Source: Promethearchaeota archaeon (lineage in GTDB: Archaea > Asgardarchaeota > Lokiarchaeia > Sigyniarchaeales > SOKP01). Taken from it: 64,000 nt of DNA. Position 1 is the stretch's first letter; every line of letters begins with the position of its first letter. Positions 309 through 6,768 of the stretch are shown here, in pieces. The stretch covers positions 1 to 64,000 of the forward strand of contig RDOA01000002.1 in assembly GCA_011364925.1 (NCBI GenBank), given 5' to 3'. The translations under genes were made by a program, and so were the position numbers. The notes under the pieces are model-generated. The model saw only the letters and a list, made by a program, of their open reading frames with translations. It was not told where the DNA came from and made no database searches.

Positions 309-1517
309 TTACTTAATAACAGTCGAGATTTTGCAATTTACTTTGTCCGTCTGTAATAACTTTATATTCTCTGGAACCTCGTTAAGAGTTATCTCTTTCG
401 TAATCATGGGAGTAACATCCATACCCGCTGCCATACAACTGATTACGTTAGGAAATGTGCCATGTCCTGAATGTCCTTGAGCGCCAACGATTCTTGCTCT
501 TCTAACTTGGAAATATTCTCCACACACTGGCATTCTCTGTTCCGCTCTGGCAACAACCACTACAGTACTATTAATTGCTTTGCATTCCCATATAGCATTT
601 TGTATATCTTCAGTACATATTTCAGGTAAACCTGCCGATTCAAGATAAAGAGCTGCTCCTTCATTGTCTGTAAATTCCTTAACCTTTTCTACAAAACTCT
701 CTTTTAGAGGATTTATGACGAAATCAGCACCCATTTTCTTAGCCAATAAAGCTCGAGGTTCTGATGGTTCTGAAATAACACATATTGCAGCTCCTGCCAT
801 TTTCAAAATCTTTATTGCCGCTAATCCAATTGGTCCCCCACCAAGAATTACTACATTTTCTCCCGGGCGAATTCCACCACCTCTCTCTATAACTGCATTA
901 TAGGCTACTGATGTTGGCTCAACTAAACTACCTATTTTGTAAATGTCTTTATATTTATCTTCTAATTTTTTTAAACTCCAACATAGTTTTGCCGGAACCG
1001 CAATATATTCTGCGAATGCTCCATCTATTGAGAAGCCAATCTCTTGTAGTCGTTCGCAGTGATTTGGATATCCATCACAACACGGTTTACATTCACCGCA
1101 CCATACCATTTCTTCAACTGTTACCGGTTCTCCTGTTTCGAAAGGTTTACCTGTTCTTTTACTTAATGCACGATTTCCTACTTCTACAATCTCTCCAGAA
1201 AATTCGTGACCAATCGTAACAGGAAAAGCAGTCAATCCTGGGTAATAGATATATCCATCTTCGTAGGCTTGGTTCATATGGACATCTGAACCACAGATTT
1301 TGTTCATTAAAAGATTTTTTTAATGAATTCCACAACGCTTAACTTTAATGAGTACTTCATTATCTTTAATTTTCGGTTTATCCTTATCAGTTAAACGAAC
1401 TTGTGGGTCTTTCCATACCTGTGAACCAAGATAAGTAAGTTTTCCCTTAATATCCTTAGACCCGATCTTAAAACTTGGCTTTGGATCCCATTTTGCACTT
1501 AATTCTACTGCTTTCAT
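309..1517 (-). CDS. iolM: scyllo-inosose 3-dehydrogenase (Zn-dependent MDR family), split by a 30-nt insert; proposed join(1328..1517,309..1297), 392 aa
   Basis: ORFs 1320..1517 and 309..1307 are in the same frame. Removing 30 nt gives KRCGICGSDVHM...GHEFSG, plus the structural Zn motif CGECKPC...C and GGGPIG. It closely resembles Thermotoga IolM as I recall it (GYIxYPGLTxFPVTxGHE). Confidence 0.85.
1298..1327 (-). other. candidate BHB/BHL-type micro-intron (30 nt) in iolM
   Basis: mRNA sense: GGAA|UUCAUUAAAAAAAUCUUUUAAUGAACAAAA|UCUGU. There is a perfect inverted repeat at 1303-1312/1318-1327 and an in-frame TAA at 1320-1322. Excision restores C-G-I-C. The exact boundary can slide by a few nt because of a flanking AAT repeat. 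Confidence 0.7.
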
Positions 1518-1677
1518 TTAATTCACTTTACTAAGATTTTGATAGCTTAATACTTATAAAAATTTAAATTAGTAGGAAAAATTTGTTAAGTTGAATTCTC
1601 CATTTCATTAAGATAATCAAATAAAAAATTAAGTAAAAATCATCTTAATAAACTCATTCTAGAAAAGCGAGAGTATT

Positions 1678-1690
1678 AAAAAAAAAAAAA
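1678..1690 (-). terminator. oligo-U archaeal terminator after the GPH transporter
   Basis: A13 on the + strand (U13 in the mRNA) lies 5 nt after the stop codon at 1696. Confidence 0.5.
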
Positions 1691-1695
1691 TTTAT

Positions 1696-3102
1696 TTACA
1701 GAATACTTGCTTTCTTTTTTTCATGCATTTCTGTAAGCTTTGCTCTATTTTTTTTAAGGCGTTCTCCTTTTATCGGAAATAGGAACATCCCAATTAAAGA
1801 CAGTGCAAGAACTATACCTGGATAAATTCCCATTAAAAATCTAAGACCCGCAATAACATCGACTCCCGGATTAGGGGTATAATCCATCCAATTTGTTGAA
1901 GTAAAAACTAGATTGATCATAACGAAATTAAAAATCATCGATAGTCTTATTAGAAAGTTGAGAACAGCATAGTATATACCAGAACGTCTTACTCCGGATG
2001 TAATTTCGTCTTCGTCAATGATCTCCGCGATGCACTGATCGTAGAAGTAAAGTCCACCACCTAAACCAAAACCAAAGAACATCATGAATATTAAAGCCAT
2101 CCAAAAATCAACCGAGTATGCGAAAAGCACAACTGATACTAACCATACAGAAATTCCTATTAATCCACAAAATCGAGCACCCTTTCTGACTCTTATTTGT
2201 TCCCATAATGGGGTTGAAACAGCAGCTACAAGAAAAGTAACTAAAAGGAGTATCCCAATCAATTCAGTGTCAGTAATACCAACAGCATATACAAAAAAAA
2301 GAGGAGCTAAGGTTGGCAAAATGTTAATCACTAACCAAGTACCGAGAGCTGGAAATAAGAACCATAAAAACGATTTGTGTTTGAAGGTAAATTTAATCGT
2401 TTTTATAAATGGCATCGCATTTTCTGCATCTTTAGAAAGATGTTTGGGATCTTTCACTCCCCATTTTAAAATTAGGAAGTAAAAAACAAATATGATGATC
2501 CCTGCTGCAATTCCGGTAATAAGATATTGAGACATAGTTATATCGACGTTAGCAGGATTGCTGTTTGTTATATCATCAATTATAAACGTAGGGAATGTTA
2601 ATGCAAACATAGTCGCTAGCAGAGTAAATATTATACGAAATCTTCCTGTTGAACTACGGGTCCTCATGTCAACAAACATTTCAGAGAATAGCGCATTATA
2701 ATTTAAGTTAAAAGCGGTATAGGCAAAATCAAATAATATCAGAATGATAAGGAAGTAGACGAAAACCAATTGATTTGTATCATAAGTTCCCGGAGGAGTA
2801 AACAAGAGAATCATTAAAATGCCGAGTGGTATGGTAGCACCAATCATCCATGGGATCCTTCTCCCCCATCTGCTTTTAGTTTTGTCAGAGAGGTATCCAA
2901 TTAATGGATCATTAACTGCATTCCACAAAGCCCAGAGTATAAAACCGATAGTCATTATAGGACTAGGAATGTCAATAACAGCGAAATAAAAAGTAAAAAC
3001 TAAAAATGAAAAAGTGTTAAGCGCCACATTATCTCCGACTTCTCCACAAGCAAAAGCTAATCTCGTGCCTAAAGACATTTTTTGAGGTCTTTCTTCATTC
3101 AT
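1696..3102 (-). CDS. GPH-family (MelB/UidB-like) MFS sugar/glycoside:cation symporter
   Basis: Contains the WNAVNDPLIGYLSDKTKSRWGRRIPW signature and about 12 TM segments. The ATG at 3102 is preferred over the TTG at 3120. Confidence 0.9.
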   Translation of the reverse strand: MNEERPQKMSLGTRLAFACGEVGDNVALNTFSFLVFTFYFAVIDIPSPIMTIGFILWALWNAVNDPLIGYLSDKTKSRWGRRIPWMIGATIPLGILMILLFTPPGTYDTNQLVFVYFLIILILFDFAYTAFNLNYNALFSEMFVDMRTRSSTGRFRIIFTLLATMFALTFPTFIIDDITNSNPANVDITMSQYLITGIAAGIIIFVFYFLILKWGVKDPKHLSKDAENAMPFIKTIKFTFKHKSFLWFLFPALGTWLVINILPTLAPLFFVYAVGITDTELIGILLLVTFLVAAVSTPLWEQIRVRKGARFCGLIGISVWLVSVVLFAYSVDFWMALIFMMFFGFGLGGGLYFYDQCIAEIIDEDEITSGVRRSGIYYAVLNFLIRLSMIFNFVMINLVFTSTNWMDYTPNPGVDVIAGLRFLMGIYPGIVLALSLIGMFLFPIKGERLKKNRAKLTEMHEKKKASIL

Positions 3103-3227
3103 ATAATCACTTCTTTTCAAAATATTTATAAATAAAAATAAATGGCTTTTTGATCTTTAAAAAGCTTTCTACTATTAACAAAACTTTGAGATTTAATTAG
3201 CTATCATTCTTATATTAAGTTAATATT

Positions 3228-4040
3228 ATGTTACTCAGCATAGTTTCAGGGCTCGAGGAATCTAAAAGTAGTCCAAATGATGTGAACAAGAAATTTACTT
3301 ATTTATGTCGATATCTTAAATCCTTGAGTTATGATGGGATTGAGTTAAGTCTTTTAGAACCTGAAAAAATAGATGTTAAGGGGATTATAGAGCTACAAAA
3401 CTCGTACGATATGAGAATTTCTGCTTTAGGAACTGGAAGTACTTTTATTCGTTTTGGATACTCTCTAGGCGATCACAGAGAACCAATTCGCAAAAAAGCG
3501 ATCGAAAGAGTCGAGAAATATATTGAATTCGCTCGAGAGACTCAATCTAAAGTCATTATAGGATTAATACGGGGACGTTATAAACACGAAAGTAATCCTC
3601 AGAAAGAACGCTTAAATATTATCTCTTCTCTTAAAGAATGTTGTTCGATAGCAGAAAACAGCGATGTTCAACTATTATTTGAACCAATTAATCGTTTCGA
3701 AATTGATTCTTATCACACAATTTCAGAATCTTTAAAATTGATTAAGGAAATAGGCTCAAGTAACTTGAAATTACTAATAGATTCTTATCACACCCACTTG
3801 GAAGAAGATCCCGTTTATATTTGGGAATACCTTAAAGAAGTCGTACATTACGTAGGTCACATTCATCTTGCTGATACAACACGTAGAGCACCTGGTTCAG
3901 GACATTTTGATTTTAAAACATTTCTAAATATTTTAAAAACTCATGGGTACTCTGAATTCGTTTCGATTGAAACTATAATGAAACCCTCTTTTGAATTAGT
4001 TGCTAAAAATTCAAGTGAATATTTAAGACAAATTTTATAA
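3228..4040 (+). CDS. iolO: 5-keto-L-gluconate epimerase-like sugar isomerase/epimerase (xylose-isomerase-like TIM barrel)
   Basis: Motifs ALGTG, RKKAIERV, VIIGLIRG, EPINRFE, DSYH, HIHLAD and APGSGHFDF resemble Thermotoga IolO. The gene lies near iolM. Confidence 0.75.
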   Translation: MLLSIVSGLEESKSSPNDVNKKFTYLCRYLKSLSYDGIELSLLEPEKIDVKGIIELQNSYDMRISALGTGSTFIRFGYSLGDHREPIRKKAIERVEKYIEFARETQSKVIIGLIRGRYKHESNPQKERLNIISSLKECCSIAENSDVQLLFEPINRFEIDSYHTISESLKLIKEIGSSNLKLLIDSYHTHLEEDPVYIWEYLKEVVHYVGHIHLADTTRRAPGSGHFDFKTFLNILKTHGYSEFVSIETIMKPSFELVAKNSSEYLRQIL

Positions 4041-4877
4041 TTAGAGATGATTATCTAACCAACTACTAAGATCGTTAAGAACTTTCTTTCGTTCTTCTTT
4101 AGATTCGTTGTATACTTCATGGTACAATCCATCGTAAATCAATATTGATTTATCTTTCATTTTGAAAGCGTTTTTTAGTGCTTCTTCAGATCCCTTAATA
4201 AGAGAATCCTCGGCACCACATTGAACTAATAAAGGTAATTTCAGGTTCTGGGTGATTGGATCAAATTTTGAAAAACAATTCATTAGTTCCCATCCTAATC
4301 GAAGTGCTATTTTATCAGCATTAACCAGCGGATCATTTTCATATGCTTGGACGACTTCTGGGTCGTGGCTTAACTTTTCAGCTTTAAGTCCAGGATTTAT
4401 GTATTTCTTTGGAATAATTTTTGCTAAGAGCTTTACTACTACTTTTGTAGCTTTACTTGTACTTTCTCCCGCTCCTGTACCCGTACCTGATAATATCAAG
4501 CCTTTTAATAGAGATTCATATTTATTTGCAAAGAACAATGCTATCATTGATCCCATCGAGTGTCCTAACATAAAAATTGGCAAATTTTGATATTTATCCT
4601 TTATTAAATCATAGAATAATTTTTCGTCCTCAATAAACTGATTAAAAGAATCAACATAATTTCTTCTTCCTTCGGATTTTCCGTGTCCACGGTGATCGTT
4701 AGCATATACCGCATAATCTAAAGGTAATAATTGATTCACTATATTAAGATATCTTCCTGAATGCTCAGCAAATCCATGAACCACTTGAACTATTGCCTTA
4801 GGATTGTCTGGTATCCATGCTTGATAATAAATTGTTAAACTCTCTATTCCTTCAAACTCTCCTTCGATGTGCTTCAT
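4041..4877 (-). CDS. alpha/beta hydrolase, lysophospholipase/monoacylglycerol lipase
   Basis: Motifs HGFAEHSGRY, DHRGHGKS, the GHSMG nucleophile elbow and YHEVYNE. Confidence 0.9.
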   Translation of the reverse strand: MKHIEGEFEGIESLTIYYQAWIPDNPKAIVQVVHGFAEHSGRYLNIVNQLLPLDYAVYANDHRGHGKSEGRRNYVDSFNQFIEDEKLFYDLIKDKYQNLPIFMLGHSMGSMIALFFANKYESLLKGLILSGTGTGAGESTSKATKVVVKLLAKIIPKKYINPGLKAEKLSHDPEVVQAYENDPLVNADKIALRLGWELMNCFSKFDPITQNLKLPLLVQCGAEDSLIKGSEEALKNAFKMKDKSILIYDGLYHEVYNESKEERKKVLNDLSSWLDNHL

Positions 4878-4930
4878 ATAAATCTCACAATTTAATTAAG
4901 ATTATACATAGAACAAAAATAAATTTATTT

Positions 4931-6058
4931 TCATTTACTATGCAATTTTGCACATTGCAATCCTGGAGTGACGACAGTGGATAAGCAACTACTACAGAAT
5001 ATACAATCCACTTCATCGTTTCCAATCCCATTCATCCATCGATTAGGAAGATTTGGCTCTCTGATTAAGGGTCTAGCAAAAGACACGAAATCAGCACTTT
5101 CGTTATTTAATATATTTTTTACAAGACTAAGTGAGTTAATACCACCAACCAAAATAACGGGTATATCCAAAACTTTCTTGAATTCTTTGGCATATGGTAA
5201 ATTATAAGCAGGTTCATTCACAGTTCCTATAAGTATTCGACTTTCTGGTAAAAAAGTTGGCTTCCAACCAAGATCTTTCTTTTTAAGCGTAGCTACTTCC
5301 CAAATTCCTCCACTTACTTCGATAGCAGAATATCCTATTTTTTCTAATCTTTTAGCAACTTTAGTAGATTCCTCTATGCTCGTTCCACCTTCTACAAAAT
5401 CAACCGCGTTTAATTTTATAAAGATCGGAAATTCCTTTTCAACTAAATCCACGCTTGTATTATAAATTTCTTCAAGAATTCTAATTCTATTATCAATACT
5501 TCCCCCATAATCGTCCGTTCTTTTGTTAATATAAGGAGAGAGAAATTCGGAAATGAGATATCCGTGAGCACCATGTATCTGAACAGCATCAAAACCCGCT
5601 TCTTTTGCTCTTCTAATTGCTTGCGAGAAAGCATCAATAATATCTATTATTTCTTTTTTAGTCATTTCGCGTGGAATTTTTCTAGTTAATTTTTCCTCCA
5701 GGGCCGACGGAGCTATCGTATTCTCGAGGCATCTAGATTGACGACCACTATGAGAGATTTGTAAAGCAACCTTACAATTTTTGCTATTTTTGTGCACCAC
5801 ATCAGCGATTTTTCTCAATCCATTGATATATTTATCATCGCTAACCCCTGTTTGTTTATCAAACGCTTTACCATTCTCATGAACGTACGCATGACCTGTG
5901 TTTATTAACCCAACTCCTCCTTCAGCTAATTCTTTGTAGAGTGTTATGTGTTTATCGGTTATATAGCCGTCCTCAGTTGCCATCCCCTCGAATGTTGCGG
6001 ATCGTACAAAACGATTTTTTATTTCCATTGAACCTATTTTCTTAGGTGACGAATACAT
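4931..6058 (-). CDS. NADH:flavin oxidoreductase (old yellow enzyme family)
   Basis: Motifs KNRFVRSAT, HGAHGYLISEFLSP, NKRTDDYGGS and a C-terminal CIFCSSC. The ORF could start at 6085; an SD-like AAGGT precedes the ATG at 6058. Confidence 0.9.
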   Translation of the reverse strand: MYSSPKKIGSMEIKNRFVRSATFEGMATEDGYITDKHITLYKELAEGGVGLINTGHAYVHENGKAFDKQTGVSDDKYINGLRKIADVVHKNSKNCKVALQISHSGRQSRCLENTIAPSALEEKLTRKIPREMTKKEIIDIIDAFSQAIRRAKEAGFDAVQIHGAHGYLISEFLSPYINKRTDDYGGSIDNRIRILEEIYNTSVDLVEKEFPIFIKLNAVDFVEGGTSIEESTKVAKRLEKIGYSAIEVSGGIWEVATLKKKDLGWKPTFLPESRILIGTVNEPAYNLPYAKEFKKVLDIPVILVGGINSLSLVKNILNNESADFVSFARPLIREPNLPNRWMNGIGNDEVDCIFCSSCLSTVVTPGLQCAKLHSK

Positions 6059-6204
6059 ATTTCTACCTTTTTGTATATATTGCATTTTTTGATAATAATT
6101 GATTTTGGCTTCTTATAAATCTTTTTTATGAGGGGTATTATTATTATGGTTTTTAATTAGCCAAATATTACATCTAATTATATTAAGCTTAGAGGTAATG
6201 TATC

Positions 6205-6768
6205 ATTAGAAAAAGATTAGAACAAGGACTTGTTCAAGTTTATTTTGGTCGGGGCAAAAATACTATATAGATAATAGTATTGTCTACAGGCAAGACCACT
6301 GCGGCAATAGGACAAGGCTTGAGAGCGACGGGGCATGGATTTAAGGTGTATATGATTCAGTTTATGAAGGGATACCCTCAATACGGTGAGGTTAAAGCGA
6401 TAGAAAATATCGCAAACTTCGAATTGAAACAATTCGGCACTCCAGACTTAATCGCAACTCCTGGAGAGATTGACTATGAAGAGGGAAGGAAAGGTATGGA
6501 ATTTGCAGAGCAAATTATTATGAGTGACGAATACGATATAGTTATTCTAGACGAGATTGGCGTAGCAGTCGAGTATGGGATTGTAGATATAAACGATTTT
6601 TTAAAATTAATTGACAACAAACCCGAAAAGGTCGAACTAATTATCACTGGAGGCCCTAAGATGCATCCTAAAATCAAGGAACGAGCAGATTTACTCACGG
6701 AAATGAGAATGATTAAACACTACTATTCCTCAAAAGGTATTAAGGCTCGTTTTGGTATAGAATATTAA
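6205..6768 (+). CDS. cobO: cob(I)alamin/cob(I)yrinic acid a,c-diamide adenosyltransferase (CobO/BtuR/CobA type), split by a 30-nt insert; proposed join(6205..6257,6288..6768)
   Basis: The frame upstream of the listed ORF encodes RLEQGLVQVYFGRGK. After removing 30 nt it continues GKTTAAIGQGLRATG...IQFMKG...ILDEI...ELIITG. There is no in-frame ATG/GTG/TTG between the TAA at 6196-6198 and the intron, so an ATT/ATC start after SD GAGGT (6192-6196) is inferred. Confidence 0.88.
6258..6287 (+). other. candidate canonical BHB micro-intron (30 nt) in cobO
   Basis: Structure: GGGC-AA|A-[AAUACUAU auagaua AUAGUAUU]-GUCU-AC|A-GGC. It has a 4-bp central helix GGGC/GUCU, two 3-nt bulges, an 8-bp hairpin and an in-frame TAG at 6268-6270. 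The spliced product reads GGC AAA GGC AAG (GKGK). Confidence 0.85.

Follow-up and report, generated by a model that had tools for sequence, protein, structure and literature searches.

Introns of the tRNA type, bounded by the motif called bulge-helix-bulge (BHB), are found in the cbf5 pre-mRNA of Desulfurococcales and Sulfolobales (Watanabe 2002; Yoshinari 2006; Yokobori 2009, PMC2738675). As of 2020, cbf5 and one Haloferax 5' UTR were the only archaeal mRNAs with BHB introns (PMC7714728). In Asgard archaea, non-canonical introns have been described in tRNA genes only (Valentin-Alvarado 2024, PMC11291895; Goswami 2026, 10.64898/2026.10.13.758758), and the word mRNA does not occur in the second of these, a preprint. 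Literature searches outside subscription journals returned no published BHB intron in an Asgard mRNA and, for archaeal coding sequences, no other gene than cbf5.

We analyzed a 64-kb window (64,000 nucleotides, contig C38) of a Lokiarchaeia genome of 3.9 Mb and 33% GC, in which two genes, coding for an IolM-type Zn dehydrogenase and a CobA/BtuR adenosyltransferase, are each interrupted by a short insert. A sequence-only reading had proposed that ordinary Asgard mRNAs are spliced at such BHB inserts by the endonuclease EndA and the ligase RtcB. This proposal receives strong comparative support, while two of its extensions, a rule of lengths divisible by three and a high intron density, are not supported.

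The inserts resemble cbf5 introns in several respects: a short intron placed in a catalytic codon (16-44 nt in cbf5, 29-34 nt in Lokiarchaeia), a mostly unconventional BHB cut (in Lokiarchaeia, predicted to be cut) after the second bulge base, a hetero-oligomeric EndA (here predicted from sequence), lineage-specific precise loss, and misannotated host genes. The strict outer helix missing from the two inserts is also missing from most cbf5 introns. However, cbf5 represents one site in one RNA-modification gene, whereas the candidate introns described here are scattered over many positions, in metabolic as well as informational genes that are unrelated to one another, and these positions vary between species of a single genus of Asgard archaea. 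Splicing of cbf5 has been proven by cDNA; that of these introns is predicted from DNA. The Haloferax HVO_1309 intron (Schwarz 2020, PMC7714728) is likewise an mRNA intron cut by EndA, and its circle has been observed, but it measures 46 nt, lies in a 5' UTR and leaves the reading frame unbroken. Asgard tRNA introns share motif, size range, enzyme, repeated gains and BHB enrichment at boundaries; the published cases are in tRNA genes, whereas ours are in protein genes.

Two interrupted genes and their inserts

Positions, length (30 nt) and organization (1 nt, 23-nt hairpin, 4 nt, 2 nt) of the two inserts were all reproduced from the sequence (Table 1), together with an in-frame stop in each and a location inside the conserved motifs CGICGSD (iolM) and GRGKGKT (cobA), both of which are restored by excision. 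The excised genes code for proteins of 392 aa (IolM) and 177 aa (CobA), and an unspliced message meets a stop or a frameshift. Although both inserts of the window measure exactly 30 nt, this length is not general: at either site, some orthologous inserts have 29 nt. An IolO-type 5-keto-L-gluconate epimerase gene (window 3228-4040) and an MFS sugar transporter gene lie beside iolM in an inositol catabolism cluster.

Table 1. Features of the interrupted genes in the window, and further putative introns on other contigs of the same genome
Feature	Position	Strand	Remarks
iolM-like Zn dehydrogenase, exon 1	1328..1517	-	63 codons + 1 nt; ORF 1320-1517; aligns with N-terminus of intron-less congeners
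iolM, putative relaxed BHB intron, 30 nt, phase 1	1298..1327	-	splits CGICGSD at the Ile codon; stem of 9-10 bp; in-frame TAA
iolM, exon 2, scyllo-inosose 3-dehydrogenase	309..1297	-	NF041097, E 6e-124, profile positions 66-386
Shine-Dalgarno-like GAGGT	6192..6196	+	8 nt before probable cobA ATT start; seen in sequence, putative function
cobA/btuR, exon 1, probable ATT start	6205..6257	+	17 codons + 2 nt; 5' strand of central helix at 6252-6255
cobA, putative BHB intron, 30 nt, phase 2	6258..6287	+	splits first Lys codon of P-loop GRGKGKT; 8-bp stem; in-frame TAG
cobA, central helix, 3' strand	6282-6285	+	helix 4/4
cobA, exon 2, ATP:corrinoid adenosyltransferase	6288..6768	+	PF02572; TIGR00708 positions 17-177
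GlcD-like oxidase intron	C11:66653-66682		verified
aIF2-gamma intron, 29 nt	C53:19121-19149		verified
uppS intron	C31:9855-9884		verified

All four pairs of the cobA central helix form in the window, and two equivalent junctions restore the frame and the conserved residue with a cut after base 2 of each 3-nt bulge. The strict outer exon helix is absent: a G.G opposition stands beside the 3' bulge, and pairing is found only further out. On the comparative grounds given below, the cobA insert can be taken with high confidence to be a tRNA-type mRNA intron. A point against it is that exon 1 offers no in-frame ATG, GTG or TTG start in this genome; the ATT at 6205 aligns with an ATG in two congeners. 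The intron-less congener L004 has ATT as well, which suggests that non-canonical start codons may be used in the genus.

In iolM, the central helix of the window has two canonical pairs out of four, flanked by two G.A oppositions, and the outer exon helix of a strict canonical BHB is lacking. Five equivalent junctions restore the frame and the conserved residue with a cut after base 2 of each bulge. With the register unchanged, relatives form more of the helix, three of four pairs in three congeners and all four in two orthologues of 29 nt. A competing, shifted fold that would excise 32 nt and so produce a frameshift is 2.7-4 kcal/mol stabler than the frame-restoring one in three relatives with 30 nt. 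We favor the frame-restoring register because of the full helix of the two orthologues, the purifying selection described below, and the bulges, which start with A in this register as they do in 11 of 12 other cases. The iolM insert, too, is likely to be a tRNA-type mRNA intron.

Distribution, covariation and selection in relatives

The cobA open frame is shortened at the insert site in 13 of 35 congeners. The insert itself was read in 9 of 20 congeners and 14 of 20 metagenome contigs, and the others join the exons exactly. For iolM, the insert is present in 5 of 21 congeners and, in a 29-nt form, in two more Loki genomes, and is otherwise exactly absent. As the sequence-only reading anticipated, such genes pass for truncated ones: databases call cobA products of 162-165 aa.

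Both lengths are well represented among the 15 distinct cobA variants (30 nt in eight, 29 nt in seven), and two of the seven iolM variants have 29 nt. Across the cobA variants, the central helix is paired in 60 of 60 cells (4 pairs x 15 variants), the only pair changes being exchanges between G-C and G-U and between C-G and U-G; the intron stem shows two-sided changes, affecting both strands. Presence and absence of the insert imply four changes on the cobA gene tree and two on that of iolM. Because same-site inserts can be aligned, the simplest reading would be a single gain followed by precise losses or allele exchange.

The carriers' cobA has a dN/dS of 0.054 in exon 2 and 0.09 in exon 1 (non-carriers, 0.063 and 0.095), and their iolM has 0.050 and 0.15 in the corresponding exons (non-carriers, 0.050 and 0.083). 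The relaxed selection of a pseudogene is thus not observed: carriers, whose dS exceeds 1, behave like non-carriers. Since cobA and iolM are under purifying selection, there must be a way of removing the insert or of skipping it. Two intron-less Logan proteins (P0032 and P0026) were considered as possible spliced transcripts and rejected: the neighbors on their contigs are divergent, and the proteins differ from the carrier genomes, so that we took them as intron-less alleles. In other Lokiarchaeia (L251, L253, L256, L258 and L278), iolM has BHB-shaped inserts at two further sites, codon 338 (five genomes, 29-30 nt) and codon 69 (one genome), the L256 gene having two putative introns.

Putative introns in other genes and their density

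Five putative introns were verified in this genome, those of cobA, iolM, the GlcD-like oxidase, aIF2-gamma and uppS. Each genome has one match to the aIF2-gamma profile; judging from these matches, 12 of 39 genomes, this one and apparently 11 congeners, have the gene interrupted at a common profile position. Its junction is unique: among 14 tried deletions of 29 nt, one gives the invariant P-loop Lys, and this is the BHB cut. The uppS gene is single-copy; its BHB junction gives Asn, with a 4/4 helix.

For a structure-blind search, this genome was aligned with sequence of the congener G017 (about 2.5 Mb) and of G008 (0.18 Mb), 1.27 Mb being under ortholog matches. Inserts were listed by protein conservation of their flanks alone, and 11 of 11 positive controls were recovered. 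Forty inserts were found, including 24 that keep the frame and 12 that break it and measure 28-34 nt. In ten of these 12, the helix at the alignment-defined junction is complete (4/4) in the register 1 + hairpin + 4 + 2 (9 of 10 when the two inserts of the window are excluded). By chance, such a helix was obtained in 0 or 1 of 12 when both cuts were slid and in 11% for the best of five random placements; the excess has a binomial p below 1e-7. Hairpin and full helix together occur in none of the 24 frame-keeping inserts. The two exceptions without a 4/4 helix are the iolM insert of the window and a start-codon insert that is probably misaligned. Judged by their motifs, intron hosts in the congener include aEF1A, MetRS, PurA and DnaG.

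Further BHB-bounded inserts thus exist beyond those of the window, as revealed by the congener alignment and by other genes of this genome. They are less dense than two cases in 64 kb had seemed to imply: that extrapolation would give about 120 per genome, whereas the aligned 1.27 Mb holds three introns here and eight in the congener, that is about 8 and about 20 per genome with shared sites uncounted, and we estimate about 10-20. Because detection needs conserved flanks, the bias of introns towards catalytic motifs is partly an effect of ascertainment. The supposed restriction to lengths of 3n is contradicted by the 29-nt inserts at both sites and by lengths of 32 and 34 nt among the congener's inserts. 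An in-frame stop is present in all nine 3n introns, as expected if it safeguards translation, but four of these stops fall within the 3' end, which is fixed, and a shuffle test gives p of about 0.05; this part of the proposal is no more than suggestive.

A homology-free scan combining structure and coding score had no power, with 37 candidates against 38 and 37 for frame-shifted decoys, so that introns were counted in the aligned part of the genome, 60% being unaligned; its "shared intron" calls are noise, and an apparent cluster on contig C54 is false. Two other inserts were seen in G017. One is a 30-nt BHB insert (C19:22763-22792, minus strand) whose G000 ortholog (C101, ~83,400) adjoins rtcB; the other is a 21-nt frame-breaking insert in the CSGNTCRS of a phosphatase-like gene (C17, ~37245, plus strand), with no clear BHB in the register used.

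Predicted splicing machinery and tRNA introns

A search for the enzymes, which the sequence-only reading had recommended along with a typing of EndA, located two EndA genes (PF01974, on C29 and C22) and one RtcB gene. The predicted catalytic EndA subunit has an intact Tyr/His/Lys triad, and its best alignments are with PDB 3p1z_B and 3ajv_B, the Aeropyrum enzyme. It has a K-P-R segment at the position of K44 and R46 of the crenarchaeal enzyme, where the loop with these residues confers broad specificity, BHL motifs included (PMC3241643). The second subunit lacks the catalytic His, as expected of a structural subunit. These genes would provide the cell with a hetero-oligomeric EndA of broad specificity and with RtcB. 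At L092 83-2055, the catalytic endA gene and an A/V-type ATPase alpha-like gene are convergent, meeting tail to tail.

The tRNA introns of this genome are 29-31 nt long and have the layout of the mRNA inserts, several being at non-canonical sites; at least nine intron-less tRNA genes are kept. In G000, both tRNA-Lys genes have T-loop (59/60) introns and several tRNAs have multiple introns (tRNA examples: C16:65771, C101:67763, C64:8891 and C16:64348). ARAGORN reported 12 tRNA genes only, in a genome rated 100% complete.

Alternative explanations

Skipping the insert without cutting the RNA would be achieved if ribosomes hopped over the hairpin, as in the bypass of T4 gene 60, or read through the stop. 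The window's iolM insert invites such a reading, with its hairpin, a stop soon after the Ile codon, another Ile codon 30 nt on and a poor central helix. In cobA, however, the take-off and landing codons are mismatched in 13 of 15 variants (AAA versus ACA, ATA, AGA, AAA), and no selection would be expected for a helix joining exon and intron ends. The Lys codon of aIF2-gamma needs bases from both exons, one from each; since this P-loop Lys arises at the BHB cut and nowhere else, neither read-through nor bypass can yield it. The 29-nt variants also rule out read-through. We consider bypass very unlikely as a general explanation, and slightly more open for iolM alone.

Remoter still is the possibility that the inserts are inactivating scars, left by miniature mobile elements or duplications in genes that have become pseudogenes. 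Stops within catalytic motifs, inserts in the form of a hairpin, a direct repeat of 3 nt (AAT) on both sides of the iolM insert and the intact alleles of many congeners would all fit. Yet carriers show dN/dS of 0.05-0.15, the sole aIF2-gamma gene is interrupted in this genome and, as it appears, in 11 congeners as well, and the exon-intron helix covaries. The argument against a mobile element family also held genome-wide, neither insert having a clear second copy: at 23/30 or better, the cobA insert has one copy, and iolM has only AT-rich matches of 23-25/30. Insert flanks have no consistent duplication. This explanation is largely refuted.

Expression in two pieces, with translation of exon 2 beginning anew at a start codon within the insert, is equally improbable. 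An in-frame ATG does occur in the iolM insert of the window, and a TTG, ATG or GTG in every cobA insert seen, three codons before GKTT; the database cobA products have just such shortened lengths. But the iolM ATG is missing in four other carriers, and the cobA triplet is set by pairing, as it comprises the last stem base and the first helix base, its first base covarying with the stem. The product would lack half of the P-loop, and exon 1 is still under purifying selection.

An assembly artefact is refuted, with a negligible probability, by DNA data: contigs from separate sequencing runs share the inserts and cross them gap-free (iolM, runs X1 with 0 differences and X2 with 2, plus a more distant contig of run X4; cobA, one contig of run X4), where the best-matching run may be the source sample, and diverged versions occur at 23 cobA and 11 iolM loci, in a count where some genomes recur.

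Discussion

The iolM and cobA inserts are very likely mRNA introns of the cbf5 type, spliced by EndA and RtcB and belonging to a set of about 10-20 per genome. The route that we infer for them would run as follows. The last exon bases would pair with the intron end, giving a helix of 4 bp with a 3-nt bulge on either side; a two-subunit EndA would cut after base 2 of each bulge; and RtcB would ligate the exons, so that IolM regains its Zn-ligand motif and CobA its P-loop. Translation of an unspliced message would halt at the stop or shift frame. Each Lokiarchaeia genome would have some 10-20 introns of this kind, gained and precisely lost at sites that differ between species.

Splicing of HAC1/XBP1 by IRE1 is another non-spliceosomal process that removes a short frame-changing intron, with RtcB-type ligation in animals. 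IRE1 is a different nuclease from EndA, its motif consists of stem-loops rather than a BHB, and the process is stress-regulated; we see no sign of regulation or of common descent in the Lokiarchaeia introns. These are probably tolerated passengers of a broad-specificity EndA, not regulators. It is unlikely that Lokiarchaeia control gene expression by means of EndA/RtcB splicing, with 10-20 mRNAs, essential ones among them, forming a changing set of substrates. If they did, the archaea closest to eukaryotes would possess a non-spliceosomal mRNA intron system in which unspliced messages are silent and spliced ones active.

Archaeal mRNA splicing has so far been treated as a one-gene curiosity (cbf5; PMC7714728). 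Our comparisons indicate that cbf5-type mRNA introns are very probably spread over many genes of a Lokiarchaeia genus, where splicing seems routine and introns appear to come and go at many sites, those of translation factors included. Asgard annotations accordingly contain truncated enzymes (e.g. TKJ20610.1 and NVM43331.1) and false gene losses. Intron gain and precise loss become testable between close species, and the system bears on how, with no spliceosome at hand, introns come to enter protein genes in the lineage nearest to eukaryotes.
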